Of a stretch of 23,896 bases of DNA, positions 3,606-21,469 are shown piece by piece. Source of the DNA: a virus; UHGV virus genome UHGV-0115697; one strand, given 5' to 3'. The translations under genes and the position numbers were made by a program. Below the pieces are notes generated by a model, which worked only from the letters and a program-made list of their open reading frames with translations, made no database searches and had not been told where the DNA came from. Numbering within the stretch: position 1 is the first letter of the stretch; the number at the start of each line of letters is the position of its first letter.

Positions 3606-5402
3606 TTAGCGATCAGTTGCATCATTGGCAAGTATTGGTCTGATGGCGTTTGCGGCGTTATTCAGCGCTCTTTCATAAGCTGGCGTTCCAGCTTTAGTGT
3701 TTGCCAAACGAAGAAGCATATTCCTTGCGGCTTTGGACTCATACAAACGCATCATTGCACCAAAACCAGCCTCAAGCCCCATTGATACACCAAGAGTCGC
3801 AGTTGCGCCAATCGTCCTTATCCTGTTGGCTTGCGATTGCCCCGTCTGAGTTACTACATTTGCGGTGTCTGACCTTGCTGTTTGCTGTAGAACTTCATGA
3901 AGAGCATCAAGCTCTTTCATGTGCTTTCCAGAAAAAATAGTGTTGTAAATTTCACCGCCTGACTGAGATTTCAGCTTATTAACTTCAGTGATGAACTTGG
4001 CTGGAGAGTCACCGGCCTTTTCCGCTATTTTGCTGACGTAAGCTGCACGCATAGCATCTTTCCCTTTATCATCCAGTGCGCTCCAGATTCGTTTCACGTC
4101 AGATGGTTTTCTGCTTAATACAACGGTATTTATAAGTTCAGGACTGGCTTCACTGCTTGCCTTGTTGAGCTTGTTAGCAATGTTTTTATTAAGCACCTTA
4201 TTATAAACGTTTGCATAATCGGAATTTGCTTTAAGGTATTTTGCTGCGTCTGATGCACCGAGGTTTTTAGCAACTGCGTTACGAAGGTCTTTTGACATTG
4301 CATTCTCTACCATATTGGTAGCTGCTTTTGCCTGGTTGGGGAAGACCATAGCATCTCCCTGAACATTAGATCTAAATGCTGTTCTGTGCTGACGCAAGAG
4401 ATCAAACGTAACATCCAAATCAGTTGCAGGGTTTGCTAATTCTTCACGTAGGTTACGCAAGGATGTAAGCAGGCTTTGATTGGCAGACGTCCCAAGCCGT
4501 TCCTGTCTTGCGATCGCTGTATTCAGAGCATTCATGGTATTTGTGGTATCAACTGCGGCATTACCCATTTTATTGGTGACGTCATTGATAACAGCGCCAG
4601 CGGCATCCTTCCGCCCCCTTAACGTGGTGGTCAGAGATTTCACCACATCATCAGGGTTATACTCACCAAAACGGTCAAAATAATTGCTTACCAGTTTACT
4701 ACGCGTTGCATATTGCTCCGCTCGCTTTGAGCCTGTCCCGAGCAAAGCACCCTCGGCATCCTGAGTAAGGCCACGAGTGAAAGCATTTTTCGGCGGGATA
4801 ACATCAGATGTCATTGGTGTCACGCCCATCGATTCTGATGTGGCAATTTTCTTCGCCACTTCTGGCGCAATATCACCTTTTATAGCCGTTATTCCACGCC
4901 CTATTCCCTTTGCTGCTGCGGAAAGAAGACCCTGTGCGCCCAGGTTAACAACGGCGTTTTTTGCCGCGTTTTCGGTAAAATCACCTTTCTGGTTAGATGC
5001 CTCTGCGATTGAGCCAATCGCCATATTCCCAGCGGTGCTGATTCCTCTGGCGACATCGGCGGTCGCCCCTACGGCTTTCGCGGCTCGACCCAGTGGCAGG
5101 ACATAACCACCAATGGCCTCGCCAGCCTGGGCGTATTGGTCTGTTGGGCGGTTTATCGGACGAGGGATCTGGTAAGGGGTGCTGTCAGCACCAAAAAGAC
5201 TACCAACTGATGTTGCGGCATCAGAAATCCCCTGAGCGACATCAAATGGAATATTTACCAGGCCTCTGGCCGCTTGCTCTGCACTTTGCATGAGCGTTTG
5301 GTCCTGCCCTGGCTCATCCAAGACAAACCCATCAGGCAGTCTAGGTGATGCCTGCTTATCGTCCAGCACAAACCCTTCCGGTAATGCTACATTGCCTGCC
5401 AT
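3606..5402 (-). CDS. Ejection (injection) protein, P22 gp16 homolog
   Basis: 598 aa versus about 609 aa for P22 gp16; last gene of the conserved order 4-10-26-14-7-20-16; Ala/Gly-rich low-complexity sequence typical of E-proteins. Confidence 0.8.
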
Positions 5403-17151: not shown

Positions 17152-17241
17152 TTATTTCCCTTCTGTTTGCTTATCCCACTCTTCGCGGAATTTGGATGGG
17201 TTGTCGAAGCCCTGAGAGCCTGAACAAACTTTGATTACCAT
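17152..17241 (-). CDS. Possible 29-aa small ORF upstream of small terminase ([29 protein letters not shown])
   Basis: AGGAAGGAG SD 7 nt upstream of ATG at 17241; TAATG overlap with the Cys-rich ORF stop. Short, no homolog known to me. Confidence 0.3.
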
Positions 17242-17435
17242 TACTTAGCTCCTTCCTGCTTGCCTGTGTTTGATGTCGTTTCAGCAGCAGCCCCAGAGCA
17301 ATTAACGCTACCCGCAACACCATATCCATAACCAGTCTTGAAGAAATTGTTGCCAGTAAATTGGTTAACAATCTTCCCGCAGCACGGGCAGCGTTGGCAT
17401 TGGCAATAAGGGGATTGATTATTCCAGTGATACAT
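17241..17435 (-). CDS. Possible 64-aa Cys-rich small protein (CQCQRCPCCGK motif)
   Basis: ATG at 17435 with AGGAGA SD 6 nt upstream; track lists a longer 89-aa version starting inside the upstream gene. Confidence 0.35.
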   Translation of the reverse strand: MYHWNNQSPYCQCQRCPCCGKIVNQFTGNNFFKTGYGYGVAGSVNCSGAAAETTSNTGKQEGAK

Positions 17436-17808
17436 CTTGTTTCTCCTGAATGAATGGCAGGAAGTGATTAACCATCCTGTCCAGCATGTAACAGTACGTC
17501 TCGTTGGCATCTTCAGGCCTTGTCGTCACGCCGACATCAGAGCAAACGTAAAAGCAGACGTGGGCACACTCATGAACGAGCGTAGCGATCTGCTGATCGA
17601 ATACTCCAATCAGATAGCATCGCTCACCCGTATCAGTGTTTTCATAGTTGCTTGCAATCCCAAGATTGAATGGCTTCTCATCCCCGCTGCCGCCAAGGAA
17701 TTTATCAGCGTGCTGAAACTGTTCTCTGGTTGTTGCGAGGTAGACGTGTGCACTTTGAAACAGCGGAATGGTGAACGCCGGGAGTTTGTGCCATTTGTCC
17801 TTAGCCAT
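17419..17808 (-). CDS. Hypothetical 129-aa protein with HExxH motif (putative small zinc metallopeptidase-like)
   Basis: Motif LVHECAHVCFY; GGAG-type SD; adjacent to upstream 80-aa gene. Confidence 0.55.
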   Translation of the reverse strand: MAKDKWHKLPAFTIPLFQSAHVYLATTREQFQHADKFLGGSGDEKPFNLGIASNYENTDTGERCYLIGVFDQQIATLVHECAHVCFYVCSDVGVTTRPEDANETYCYMLDRMVNHFLPFIQEKQDVSLE

Positions 17809-17809
17809 A

Positions 17810-18052
17810 TCACACTCCAGCAGTGAACAGGTCTAACGCTTCCTTCGATTTACGCACCGCTTCGATAGTACGGGTCGTGATATCTGAATTAGCGCCGCCT
17901 GACTGGAAGTGAATTTTGAATAGCTCAAGCTTCAGCTCGTCAGTGCCAATGAATTGAAATGCTTCTTCTGCGGCTGCGTTCTGGTTCATGACCAGTTTGT
18001 AAATCTCTAACTGGAATTTCTGTTCTTCAGTCATGGGAATAATCTCTGCCAT
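17810..18052 (-). CDS. Hypothetical 80-aa acidic protein
   Basis: ATG at 18052 with GGAG-containing SD; ends one codon before the HExxH gene start; no homolog recognised. Confidence 0.5.
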   Translation of the reverse strand: MAEIIPMTEEQKFQLEIYKLVMNQNAAAEEAFQFIGTDELKLELFKIHFQSGGANSDITTRTIEAVRKSKEALDLFTAGV

Positions 18053-18155: not shown

Positions 18156-18536
18156 CTACTGTTCGCTTAGCTTCTGCTTCAGCAAGTAACCTTCGAGCAT
18201 CCAGATTTTGTTTACAGCATTCTGCCGGGCAATCTTCCGACCAATTTCTGCATCAAAGTTTTCCGGGCTTGCACAGGCACTCTCTCCGGTGACGGTGAAG
18301 CCATTCTTCAGCACCAGTACGCAGAAAGTGAGCAACTTCAATGGTGATAAATCACGATCGCCTTCTTCTGGTTTTTCCCTGCCACAATATTCGTTGCTGG
18401 AAATGGCACCATTTCGTCCATCATAAGCAGTAAAGTAATGCTCGCTTTTAATCACGTCTTCGATGTGCTGCAGGGTGATTCGCGGTGCCGTTTTGCCTTT
18501 CTCAACGATTTCTTTTTCGATTTGCTGGTCGTTCAT
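18156..18536 (-). CDS. Gp49 / Sf6 gene 66-family phage protein (function unknown)
   Basis: C-terminal LKNGFTVTGESACASPENFDAEIGRKIARQNAVNKIWMLEGYLL resembles the remembered Phage_gp49_66 family core; location after lysis genes as in Sf6-type genomes. Confidence 0.55.
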   Translation of the reverse strand: MNDQQIEKEIVEKGKTAPRITLQHIEDVIKSEHYFTAYDGRNGAISSNEYCGREKPEEGDRDLSPLKLLTFCVLVLKNGFTVTGESACASPENFDAEIGRKIARQNAVNKIWMLEGYLLKQKLSEQ

Positions 18537-18770: not shown

Positions 18771-19241
18771 TTAAATGATTTGCCAGTCTTCTGCTAGAAC
18801 ATCAGTCTGACTAGCCAGCCACGGTACTAATTTATCGTCCGCTGTCTTCATGCAAATGCATGGCAGCGTCACAAGGCCATTAACTCCGTCCAGGTCACAC
18901 TCAAACCCCCAAGCATTCTGCTGGATAATGAACAGATACATCCCCTTACCATTCCAGCCAGCACGGGCAACTTTATTCCCCAACTTGAGCGCTTCAATGG
19001 CAAGGCCGAAACTTAGCCCTGATACCGGACGATAAGCCTTTTCGAATACTTCTTTTGGACTCCAGCTAACGTAGCCATCAAAGCGATCGGTGTTAGGTTT
19101 TCCGCCATCAAGATATTCAACCAGATAGCCTTCATCCTCGCCGTTTTCTCCGGCAGGAAGCTGCCAGCCACGAAAATCGTTATATGCCTGTCTCGTCATC
19201 GGAAAGGCGTTAATCAGTTTTACGCCAATATGCTGGGTCAT
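18771..19241 (-). CDS. DUF2829-like protein (Tad2-type nucleotide-sponge fold candidate), 156 aa
   Basis: C-terminal half LSFGLAIEALKLGNKVARAGWNGKGMYLFI...CICMKTADDKLVPWLASQTDVLAEDWQII resembles remembered DUF2829 core; ATG at 19241 chosen because the longer track ORF would overlap Rz and the post-Rz terminator. Confidence 0.5.
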   Translation of the reverse strand: MTQHIGVKLINAFPMTRQAYNDFRGWQLPAGENGEDEGYLVEYLDGGKPNTDRFDGYVSWSPKEVFEKAYRPVSGLSFGLAIEALKLGNKVARAGWNGKGMYLFIIQQNAWGFECDLDGVNGLVTLPCICMKTADDKLVPWLASQTDVLAEDWQII

Positions 19242-19262
19242 AAAATTACCTATAGAGTTGGG

Positions 19263-19287
19263 AATAAAAAGCCCCGCATCGCGAGGC
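19263..19287 (-). terminator. Intrinsic terminator (minus strand) after the lysis cassette
   Basis: Minus-strand GCCUCGC-GAU-GCGGGGC hairpin (plus 19271-19287) followed by UUUUUAUU (plus 19263-19270); 35 nt after Rz stop. Confidence 0.55.
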
Positions 19288-19321
19288 TCATTAAATGGAC
19301 TTTGTGATTTGCAAAAAAAAA

Positions 19322-19789
19322 TTATTTCAGGCATTGCGTCCTGATGTATTCCTGCAGGTAGTTAACCTGCGCGGTTATCTTATCGATTCCACTTCGGAGA
19401 CGGTAATAATTGAGTTCAGCATCTGCTGTAAGTCTTGGGCTTTCTCCATCGCCCATGCCGCTGGCTCCGGTCGTTGACTTTGCACAGGTGGCGGCGACTT
19501 GCAGGCGCTTACGCCCAGCAGAAACATCAGCACGGAGGCTTTCGATAGTCGCGTTAGCATCAGCAAGCTCCTTTGTGTATCTGGCGTCAAGTTCTGCTAC
19601 ATCACGTTGACGCTTCTGCATGTCTTTAATGGTGGCGGTCGCCAGGAGGAGTTTCTCAGTGGCCTTATCGCGCTGGTCTCTGTAAGTGATGGCGTTGTCG
19701 CGGTAGTGGTTCACGAAGAAAGCCAGTGCGCCGATTAACGCCAGCACCAGCAACTGCAGCCAGTAACGCTTAACCAGTGCGCTAATCAT
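19322..19789 (-). CDS. Rz: Spanin inner-membrane subunit Rz (i-spanin)
   Basis: 155 aa; N-terminal TM segment then AVNHYRDNAITY..RDK...DMQ.RQRDVA.LDA.YTKELADA, closely matching lambda Rz; ATGA overlap with lysozyme stop. Confidence 0.9.
   Translation of the reverse strand: MISALVKRYWLQLLVLALIGALAFFVNHYRDNAITYRDQRDKATEKLLLATATIKDMQKRQRDVAELDARYTKELADANATIESLRADVSAGRKRLQVAATCAKSTTGASGMGDGESPRLTADAELNYYRLRSGIDKITAQVNYLQEYIRTQCLK
19375..19560 (-). CDS. Rz1: Spanin outer-membrane lipoprotein subunit Rz1 (o-spanin), embedded in +1 frame within Rz
   Basis: MLTRLSKASVLMFLLGVSAC with lipobox V-S-A-C and Cys at position 20, then Pro-rich KSPPPVQSQRPEPAAW; fully embedded in Rz as in lambda. Alternative start ATG at 19527. 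Confidence 0.8.
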   Translation of the reverse strand: MLTRLSKASVLMFLLGVSACKSPPPVQSQRPEPAAWAMEKAQDLQQMLNSIITVSEVESIR

Positions 19790-20650: not shown

Positions 20651-20675
20651 AAATAAAAAACCCGCTCAAGGCGGG
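20651..20675 (-). terminator. Intrinsic terminator (minus strand), tR'-like, downstream of the tRNAs and upstream of holin
   Basis: Minus-strand CCCGC-CUUGA-GCGGG hairpin (plus 20661-20675) followed by UUUUUUAUUU (plus 20651-20660). Confidence 0.6.
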
Positions 20676-20887: not shown

Positions 20888-20950
20888 AAATAAAAAAAGC
20901 CACCGTTGCAACTTAAGAGTCACTAACGGCAGCTTACCCTCTAATTATGG

Positions 20951-21469
20951 CTAAATGGCTAATTGCATGTCAAGGTTTTTAACAGCAACATGCTTAACTT
21001 TCTCAACACGTTTACGCATTTTGAAAGCATTTTGCATTGGTTGGTACAAAACAAATAATGACGCTTTCAGGATGTCGTCAATTTCATTTCTACAGGTTGC
21101 CAGTGAAGGTTTTCTCCATCCCTCGCCACCACGTCCACACATCTTGCGTGGCTTTGCAGTCGCGTGATAGTAGGATGCAATTGCTCGCTTAGATGAACCA
21201 TGAGCGTAGTAGCTGAGGAGGATGCCAAAGGCTTTCTTGTCAATGTACATGACGGAATCGACGACCTGAGAAATCAACATTCCATCGTCATCATTACACA
21301 TTGGCCTTGTCATAACTCTTCCCGGCTCTACGCTCTCCATGAACTTAACTATTACGCTGCTCATGCGCTTTTCCAGACGACCTGAATAAACCCATGCCCC
21401 CCACAGTTCAAGCCAGCCATTCAGCCAATCGTGCTGTTCTTTGGTGAGGTTTATTTCTCTTATGCTCAT
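20951..21469 (-). CDS. Q: Late-gene antiterminator Q (phage 82 / QuuD family)
   Basis: 172 aa; L.LWGAWVYS...SRPMCNDDDGMLI resembles remembered QuuD (..ERWGAWAA...SRPQCCDDDAMII); sits immediately upstream of the tRNA/lysis late leader. Confidence 0.7.
   Translation of the reverse strand: MSIREINLTKEQHDWLNGWLELWGAWVYSGRLEKRMSSVIVKFMESVEPGRVMTRPMCNDDDGMLISQVVDSVMYIDKKAFGILLSYYAHGSSKRAIASYYHATAKPRKMCGRGGEGWRKPSLATCRNEIDDILKASLFVLYQPMQNAFKMRKRVEKVKHVAVKNLDMQLAI

Follow-up and report, generated by a model that had tools for sequence, protein, structure and literature searches.

The gluzincin ligand pattern is a HExxH motif followed by a glutamate: thermolysin uses H142, H146 and E166 (HExxH-x19-E, with N165 before the Glu), and M1 peptidases have HExxH-x18-E. 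In phages, a zincin-like metallopeptidase (MPTase) domain has been assigned to residues 2130-2448 of the N4 virion RNA polymerase (vRNAP), autoprocessing has been proposed for such domains of polyvalent proteins, and the zincin-like MPTase core is described as a beta-sheet, a helix N-terminal to the sheet and two C-terminal helices with HExxH and Glu (Iyer et al. 2017, PMC5512222). In the genome papers of epsilon34 and UAB_Phi20, hkcC is listed among the genes without a known function (PMC2629481, PMC4837284). Here, we report the analysis of a 129-amino-acid (aa) gene of the HkcC family, found in a 23,896-nucleotide (nt) stretch of viral DNA (UHGV virus genome UHGV-0115697; the whole stretch is hereafter called the window). 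Its product keeps the two His and two Glu residues invariant in the family, and we favor, with modest confidence, its being a stand-alone minimal zinc metallopeptidase.

Two true homologues are its nearest named relatives in the phage collection. Orf-129 of ST64T and phage L (61% identical) occupies the same post-lysis, pre-terminase slot as the window gene, while HkcC of P22 and HK620 (35% identical) keeps HECAH and ANETYCY but, unlike the window gene, lies in the immI/ant moron. Ligand pattern and spacing in the family are the same as in thermolysin (M4) and the M1 aminopeptidases, and an Asn precedes the Glu as in N165-E166 of thermolysin, whereas the residue four past the Glu is Tyr, not the Asp of the gluzincin ExxxD signature. 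The order of elements in the minimal zincin scaffold of the minigluzincins proabylysin and projannalysin (beta-alpha-beta-beta-alpha-alpha) matches our predicted model. Searches of the PDB detected no sequence or fold match to gluzincins. With the N4 vRNAP MPTase domain, the family shares a HExxH helix after 'x-I-Y-L-x...E-T-L-x-H-E' and two strands and, by eye, an N-E-x-x-x-[YW] helix motif; it differs in standing alone (~125 aa), outside any giant injected protein, and in its short inter-helix connector. PhageMetallopep (PF18894) is likewise a HExxH protein of lambdoid phages encoded beside terminase genes, but it is a separate family (212 aa, VEHELYH), and the window protein has no PF18894 match.

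The gene, its family and four invariant residues

The gene and the features that define its putative metal site are:

17419..17808, minus strand: 129-aa gene, HkcC / ST64T Orf-129 / PHROG 1365 family (open reading frame [ORF], family match, ratio of nonsynonymous to synonymous substitution rates [dN/dS])
17560..17574, minus strand: codons of H79-E80-C81-A82-H83 (HExxH), in predicted helix 74-91 (conservation, AlphaFold model)
17488..17505, minus strand: codons of N102-E103-T-Y-C106-Y107, with E103 as candidate third ligand (alignment, predicted helix 103-127)
17815..17818, minus strand: GGAG, Shine-Dalgarno-like, 6 nt 5' of the ATG of the 129-aa gene (read from sequence)

The ORF begins with ATG, and its GGAG lies within the 3' end of the upstream DUF2560 gene. 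As a sequence-only reading of the window had pointed out, the protein carries a single HECAH in the context LVHECAHVCFY, here placed at residues 79-83 on the minus strand. It is the sole HExxH within any open frame of the window (six frames); the composition of the window's genes predicts 0.0013 such motifs per 129-aa protein and 0.07 for all genes. Between alleles 86-90% identical, the minus-strand frame has a dN/dS of 0.07-0.08. An antisense ORF of the same length (17437..17826, plus strand) is a shadow, because its frame gives a dN/dS of >2 with the same alleles. The 129-aa gene is genuinely coding and under strong purifying selection, and an N-terminal 'MAKxKWPK' kept throughout the family supports the annotated start. 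The protein has no signal peptide and, in the window, no basic tail.

An alignment of 132 representatives, 24-49% identical to the window protein, has a mean column identity of 16%, and in it H79, E80, H83 and E103 are the only invariant residues (132/132). Near-invariant are G50 (131 members), Y107 (128), G93 (122), T76 (117) and L77 (116), and further conserved positions are F70 (115), C106 (112), G68 (111) and N102 (76), which gives the family signature [YF]-x-x-G-x-F ... T-L-x-H-E-x-x-H ... G ... [NG]-E-x-[FY]-C-Y. The spacer between H83 and E103 is 18-19 residues long in 120 of the 132 members, and the HExxH and NE-type motifs are both retained in P22 HkcC and in a 195-aa member from Escherichia phage mEp515. 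No conserved His was found downstream of H83 in this alignment. As in zincins and gluzincins, the HExxH, kept in all members, falls on a predicted helix (residues 74-91 of the window protein); at the level of sequence and predicted secondary structure, a candidate third-ligand Glu falls on the next helix. The loss of the motif in homologues that was to refute the sequence-only reading was therefore not seen in 132 diverse homologues, and the third zinc ligand that it proposed to look for has a candidate in the invariant E103, 18-19 residues past H83 at the start of the following helix.

Structures were predicted with AlphaFold2 from 44 sequences (mean predicted local distance difference test [pLDDT] 83.3, predicted template modeling score [pTM] 0.80) and from 132 (92.7, pTM 0.86). 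Both models have strands at 11-13, 20-25, 50-56 and 63-69 and helices at 28-37, 74-91 (with the HExxH) and 103-127 (with E103 first), in the order beta-beta-alpha-beta-beta-alpha(HExxH)-alpha(E103). The predicted model contains the core elements that Iyer et al. list for zincin-like MPTases. Foldseek of the first model against BFVD returned 29 matches at E<1e-3, all of them phage proteins of ~100-215 aa from many hosts; most are unnamed, and a few further hits of the list bear automatic labels such as 'SprT-like family protein', 'PolyVal Metallopeptidase superfamily domain' or 'Metalloprotease'. One BFVD match labeled IrrE has a TM-score of only 0.33.

The family is phage-restricted, large and uncharacterized. 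The window protein matches PHROG 1365 ('unknown function') with E=8.2e-37 (residues 1-125 against profile positions 3-121 of 127). A word-indexed search returned 113 close homologues, all from Enterobacterales or phages of these, and automated naming calls one of them 'SprT-like family protein'. An exhaustive search by profile recovered at least 937 clusters (50% identity) with E<=1e-3, of which 276 had E<=1e-10; the 150 best representatives all stand alone and measure 69-216 aa. Members are present in 81 phage records and in 288 viral-contig loci (scanned with a closer alignment of the family), the carriers include both virulent and temperate phages, and distant members occur in Ralstonia T7-like phages, N4-like coliphages, Jersey-like Serratia phages, a Providencia phage and an Achromobacter jumbo phage. 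A plasmid or defense-island context was rejected, since only 8 of 72,556 plasmid records hold a copy, most of these phage-sized. The three-gene segment of the window around the 129-aa gene is found in only 16 of 5,426 complete E. coli genomes, where PGAP calls the gene product 'hypothetical protein'.

The hkcC ORF is uncalled in the P22 reference annotation (BK000583, 13861-14220, plus strand), where it is intact, with both HECAH and ANETYCY; at its 5' end it overlaps the sieA promoter annotated on the opposite strand (locus L002, 2501-2860). It is annotated in HK620 and in other P22-like records. The mEp515 member (locus L003, 3001-3585) owes its 195 aa to a C-terminal extension of ~65 aa, rich in Glu, Ala and Lys, with the basic tail KKPVKKGKRKPKAK...RFKRG, which may bind nucleic acid or serve in targeting. 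Similar long members among the representatives have 173-189 aa.

Profile comparisons and predicted function

The family profile was searched against all PDB sequences and gave 13 weak matches, 9 to zinc proteases and 4 to chains of N4-type vRNAP. The zinc proteases are myroilysin (3 chains, best E=0.003), BMP1/tolloid (5 chains) and a peptidyl-Lys metalloendopeptidase; the myroilysin match comprises two colinear segments, which take in the N-terminal 'KWP...' strand and the strand plus HExxH helix. The vRNAP match covers ~residues 2188-2235 of the full-length chains, inside the MPTase domain. An alignment of this domain was built from N4 and 13 diverse N4-like phages and compared (hhalign) with the family alignment (A2), which gave a probability (Prob) of 91.9 (P=7e-7, 107 columns), against Prob 0.1 (P=0.59) for the reversed vRNAP alignment as control and Prob 3.7 (P=0.012) for a SprT alignment against the vRNAP domain. 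We regard the 129-aa protein as zincin-like by sequence, with the MPTase domains of phage polyvalent proteins as its nearest detectable relatives, a relationship that is no more than suggestive when the motif columns are left out. The comparisons do not establish it as a member of the polyvalent MPTase family or of any curated one. The zinc-metallopeptidase signature put forward in the sequence-only reading is accordingly borne out as far as an invariant HExxH and a candidate third ligand go, but no curated peptidase family or solved zincin was matched. The family is predicted to be an uncharacterized one within the zincin-like phage peptidases.

In the 14 N4-like vRNAPs (L094-L108), the MPTase domain keeps two acidic motifs past the HExxH, (I/L)-E-x-L-M at ~+27 and A-L-N-E-F-M-A-W at ~+77. 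A third metal ligand could come from either one, and the latter resembles the N-E-x-F-C-Y of the family.

The reading that we favor, with the modest confidence stated above, is a soluble, cytoplasmic, stand-alone minimal Zn metallopeptidase of gluzincin-like type, made late and cutting a protein in trans. The metal would be held by H79 and H83 on the active-site helix and by E103 at the start of the following helix, and E80 would activate the water. The strand before the helix (Y65-x-x-G68-x-F70) would bind the peptide substrate edge-on, and the near-invariant Y107, one helical turn past E103, may assist catalysis. The gene would share the Q-dependent late transcript of the operon in which it stands between lysis and terminase genes, and would be a non-essential accessory gene of tailed phages without a morphogenetic role. 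Since there is no signal peptide, the enzyme would act in the cytoplasm, late in infection. Its substrate in trans would most probably be a host or rival-element protein (host manipulation or counter-defense): the accessory distribution (detailed below), coexisting paralogues and the presence of the gene in virulent and temperate carriers favor a role directed at the host or a competitor. An anti-defense role is plausible. Metal binding, peptidase activity, the timing of expression and the class of target are all inferred here.

Several results weigh against this reading. A Pfam/NCBIfam scan of the 129-aa protein found no model at cut-off. The Pfam SprT-like model PF10263 reached 12.7 bits against a cut-off of 25.6 and covered residues 73-91 only, that is, the motif, and with the family consensus sequence nothing in Pfam passed either (SprT-like, 12.4 bits). 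The NCBIfam model of the aKG-HExxH peptide beta-hydroxylase (TIGR04267) matched residues 75-104 with E=0.0025 and 17.9 bits, the cut-off being 40. PADLOC, which models known anti-phage defense proteins, gave no match for the protein at E<=1, and Foldseek of the first model (pLDDT 83.3) gave none of significance among solved structures (best E=0.04). About half of the hhalign score between family and vRNAP comes from the HExxH columns; deletion of these five columns from both alignments lowered the result to Prob 5.7 (P=0.007), in the same register. Equating the N-E-x-F-C-Y helix of the family with the NEFMAW helix of vRNAP was rejected for want of statistical alignment support, the likeness being by eye only. 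The proximity of the third ligand is assumed, as the model places E103 first in its helix and H83 8 residues before the end of the preceding one. Late expression is atypical for an anti-defense factor. The literature on hkcC, DUF2560, SprT-like phage proteins and accessory-gene screens yielded no functional data; none of the annotations and papers examined assigned a function to a family member, the P22 copy included, or described an experiment on one.

Assignment to the SprT-like, ImmA/IrrE, PhageMetallopep or PolyVal families of Pfam was rejected, since hmmscan of the protein, the 132 members and the consensus reached no cut-off. For ImmA/IrrE (peptidase M78, PF06114) and for the polyvalent-protein MPTase (PF18818), no match was listed for the protein or the 132 members. 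The XRE repressor pairing of the ImmA/IrrE type was not seen: the neighbors of the gene are DUF2560, the Cys-rich ORF and terminase genes.

If the prediction is true, few stand-alone zincin scaffolds would be smaller than that of this family (~115-130 residues). Its members are very common among tailed phages with many different hosts, and the model phage P22 has a copy; the clear catalytic signature, together with the tractability of P22, ST64T and Sf6-like coliphages, makes identification of a substrate feasible, which could reveal a proteolytic counter-defense, a host-takeover mechanism or an overlooked processing step. The present result improves an annotation and is not surprising, as phages are already known to carry small HExxH accessory proteins.

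A narrower proposal, which we consider unlikely, makes the family a free-standing, trans-acting relative of the injected MPTase module and a late counter-defense protease; its target would be an immune sensor or effector, of the host or a prophage, that responds to late phage proteins such as terminase, portal or capsid. It would explain the recurrent position just 5' of several unrelated terminase types, the accessory distribution and the two divergent paralogues (Orf-129 and HkcC types) in single P22-like genomes.

Alternative functions

The best profile-profile match of the family, the vRNAP MPTase domain, also suits a processing protease, a stand-alone counterpart of that domain cleaving virion, ejection or accessory proteins of the phage before or after packaging. 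The autoprocessing proposed by Iyer et al. (PMC5512222) is in line with this, as are the predicted late transcription together with virion genes and the position of P22 hkcC, which is flanked by sieA and mnt in the immI/ant moron and comes shortly after the ejection-protein genes 7, 20 and 16. Against it, the gene is present or absent among close relatives that have the same virion module, and outside the motif the vRNAP homology is no more than suggestive. A role of HkcC or Orf-129 in the trimming of P22 gp7 was rejected, because the P22 record assigns this event (loss of 20 N-terminal residues, the one annotated processing event) to the host OpdA. P22 is not known to have a prohead protease step. 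We consider a processing role unlikely.

It is improbable that the HExxH...E site is non-proteolytic, serving a metal-dependent hydrolase or hydroxylase with a small molecule or nucleotide as substrate, or a binding protein without catalytic activity. Some HExxH proteins, such as those of the DUF45/YgjP type, are not peptidases, and two observations point the same way: the weak aKG-HExxH match and a nearby gene with a Tad2-like domain, a family named for sequestering a signaling nucleotide. That match, however, is far under its 40-bit cut-off. The strict invariance of the general-base residue E80 with both His and E103 argues for zincin-type catalysis, and 9 of the 13 remote PDB matches are peptidases, the other 4 lying in the predicted metallopeptidase region of N4-type vRNAP.

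A SprT/Wss1/Spartan-like DNA-associated protease that removes proteins bound or cross-linked to phage DNA, such as restriction or other DNA-bound host factors, appears quite improbable. SprT-like proteins (PF10263; E. coli SprT, Spartan, Wss1) are also small HExxH proteins, 16 of the 132 members have weak Pfam SprT-like matches (best E=1e-4), and the label has been attached automatically to some family members and fold neighbors, including the one close homologue mentioned above. Members of the mEp515 type have a Lys-rich C-terminal tail, and in Serratia phage Tsm2 the gene directly follows that of DNA polymerase I. The Pfam score of the window protein, however, is far under the cut-off and comes from only ~17 residues around the motif. 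In E. coli SprT, H95 ('PHGKEW') is invariant and C131/C133/C155/C158 form a cluster, whereas the family has no conserved downstream His and no C-terminal Cys4 module or zinc ribbon, and a basic tail is lacking in the window protein. Homology to E. coli SprT (yggI/sprT, 24-sequence alignment) was rejected at hhalign Prob 10 with the motifs unaligned, a weak negative in that the SprT profile is narrow (Neff about 2).

An accessory role in late lysis, with an enzyme that waits in the cytoplasm like a canonical endolysin, reaches the envelope through holin lesions and cleaves a peptide link there, such as a peptidoglycan stem peptide or an Lpp link, is very improbable: the gene lies downstream of Rz or lysozyme in most of 80 viral loci, follows lysozyme in Ralstonia phage RSB3 and in the metagenomic loci L004-L006 and, like canonical endolysins, encodes no signal peptide, but P22 hkcC is in immI, other members are in replication or small-gene arrays, the post-Rz site is an insertion hotspot that holds unrelated genes, and known phage peptidoglycan peptidases use other metal motifs (M15, M23), not HExxH.

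Late-operon setting and neighborhoods in related phages

The window is a segment of a P22/Sf6-like (Lederbergvirus-type) phage whose major genes are all encoded by the minus strand. Read 5' to 3', they specify the antiterminator Q/gp23, holin, lysozyme and Rz, with a PR'-like promoter and a tR'-like terminator between Q and holin and a terminator-like hairpin past Rz. There follow a gene with a Tad2-like domain, a gp49/66-family gene, the DUF2560 gene, the 129-aa gene and the small Cys-rich ORF, then the small terminase gp3, the large terminase, the portal and onward. The features are:

20944..20973 (20973->20944), minus strand: PR'-like promoter, near-consensus TTGACA-18-CATAAT (sequence)
20661..20675 (20675->20661), minus strand: tR'-like strong intrinsic terminator, CCCGCCTTGAGCGGG plus T-run (sequence)
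19289->19269, minus strand: terminator-like hairpin (sequence)
18771..19334, probable true start 19241, minus strand: protein with a C-terminal Tad2-like/DUF2829 domain (PF11195, E=1.4e-26)
18156..18536, minus strand: Phage_gp49_66 family protein, N4 gp49 / Sf6 gp66-like (PF13876, E=1.5e-34)
17810..18052, minus strand: 80-aa acidic DUF2560 protein, Sf6 gp67-like, upstream neighbor (PF10834, E=1e-43)
17241..17435, minus strand: possible 64-aa Cys-rich ORF (CQCQRCPCC, then a Gly/Tyr-rich stretch), downstream neighbor (ATG 17435 and AGGAGA)

The tR'-like terminator lies ~270 nt past the promoter and 5' of the holin gene, and the pair forms the PR'/tR' arrangement expected for Q-dependent late transcription. 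No sigma-70 promoter for the island was found on the minus strand between 17000 and 19300, which makes Q-dependent late expression the simplest assumption for the 129-aa gene. The post-lysis location given in the sequence-only reading is correct, the gene standing between the lysis cassette and the terminase genes of the late operon. Its tight packing is also confirmed on the upstream side, where the TGA of DUF2560 (17810-17812) is separated from the ATG by 1 nt; the packing between the 80-aa gene and the Cys-rich ORF stands as a whole, while the status of the latter as a gene is doubtful. Of the co-transcribed accessory operon that was suggested, the tight late-operon packing remains, whereas the three genes form no fixed unit, their neighbors differing among related phages.

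Taken from its first ATG, the Cys-rich ORF covers 17241..17510 and has 92 nt in common with the 129-aa gene; a start at the internal ATG 17435 (preceded by AGGAGA, a strong Shine-Dalgarno sequence; 64 aa, 17-nt overlap) is more plausible. The 64-aa frame is open in 8 alleles, too alike for a test of selection, and has no Pfam, PHROG or tblastn match and no PGAP annotation. It may be an unrecognized small gene.

Neighborhoods were surveyed in 80 viral-contig loci with relatives 55-98% identical. Wherever flanking markers were identifiable, the gene is on the late-operon strand, 3' of Rz or lysozyme and 5' of the small terminase gene, and the adjoining terminases are of several unrelated types (P22 gp3-type, Sf6-type and P27/Terminase_2-like). 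A Terminase_2-like small-terminase-like gene of 333 aa is directly downstream in 9 loci, with other terminase types a short gap further. A gene like ST64T Orf-134 was called downstream in ~29 loci and a match to the 64-aa Cys-rich ORF (Cys64) in 14. DUF2560 is directly upstream in ~40 parsed loci and directly downstream in 2 (up to 5 on that side); a DUF2560 match was absent from 28 of the 80 loci. DUF2560 as an obligate partner or inhibitor was rejected on three grounds: it occurs without the gene at the same site in Sf6 and HK620, is unmatched in those 28 loci, and stands in reversed order in a few.

Beyond this site, ST160, SE1, UAB_Phi20 and other P22-like phages have two paralogues, one post-lysis and one in immI. 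In Ralstonia phage RSB3 the family gene follows lysozyme at the right end, in N4-like ECBP1 it lies in a small-gene array, in Serratia phage Tsm2 it comes directly after DNA polymerase I, and in Kokobel2 it is upstream of terminase; metagenomic members span the same range of contexts. Absent from the Sf6/HK620 site, with varying neighbors and with two paralogues in several P22-like phages, the gene behaves like a mobile accessory gene with no fixed partner, not like a morphogenetic gene or one of a two-gene system. The post-Rz site itself is a general insertion hotspot, where Rha-like and KilA-N-like ORFs (by sequence) and Tad2-like and DUF2560 genes (Pfam) are found.

PF18894 PhageMetallopep (212 aa, VEHELYH, E=5e-43) is directly downstream of the gene in 8 lambdoid loci, with a gap of 4-10 nt (L021, at 4376-5014, L028, L029 and L039-L043), so that two unrelated predicted metallopeptidases stand side by side, 5' of the terminase genes.

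Of the other island genes, the one with the Tad2-like domain belongs to a Pfam family (PF11195) named for Thoeris anti-defense 2; two genes upstream, it offers weak guilt by association for a host-directed role of the 129-aa protein. The PHROG match of this protein begins at residue 28, and the hairpin at 19289->19269 is within the 5' part of the long ORF, which makes a start at M32 probable; the hairpin then probably falls in the intergenic space downstream of Rz. PHROG 9467 matches the gp49_66 protein as well as the N-terminal part of its Tad2-like neighbor, a hint that the two share a module. In one phage record (Huey), a gene under the stretch 18156..18536 is labeled 'anti-CRISPR protein'.

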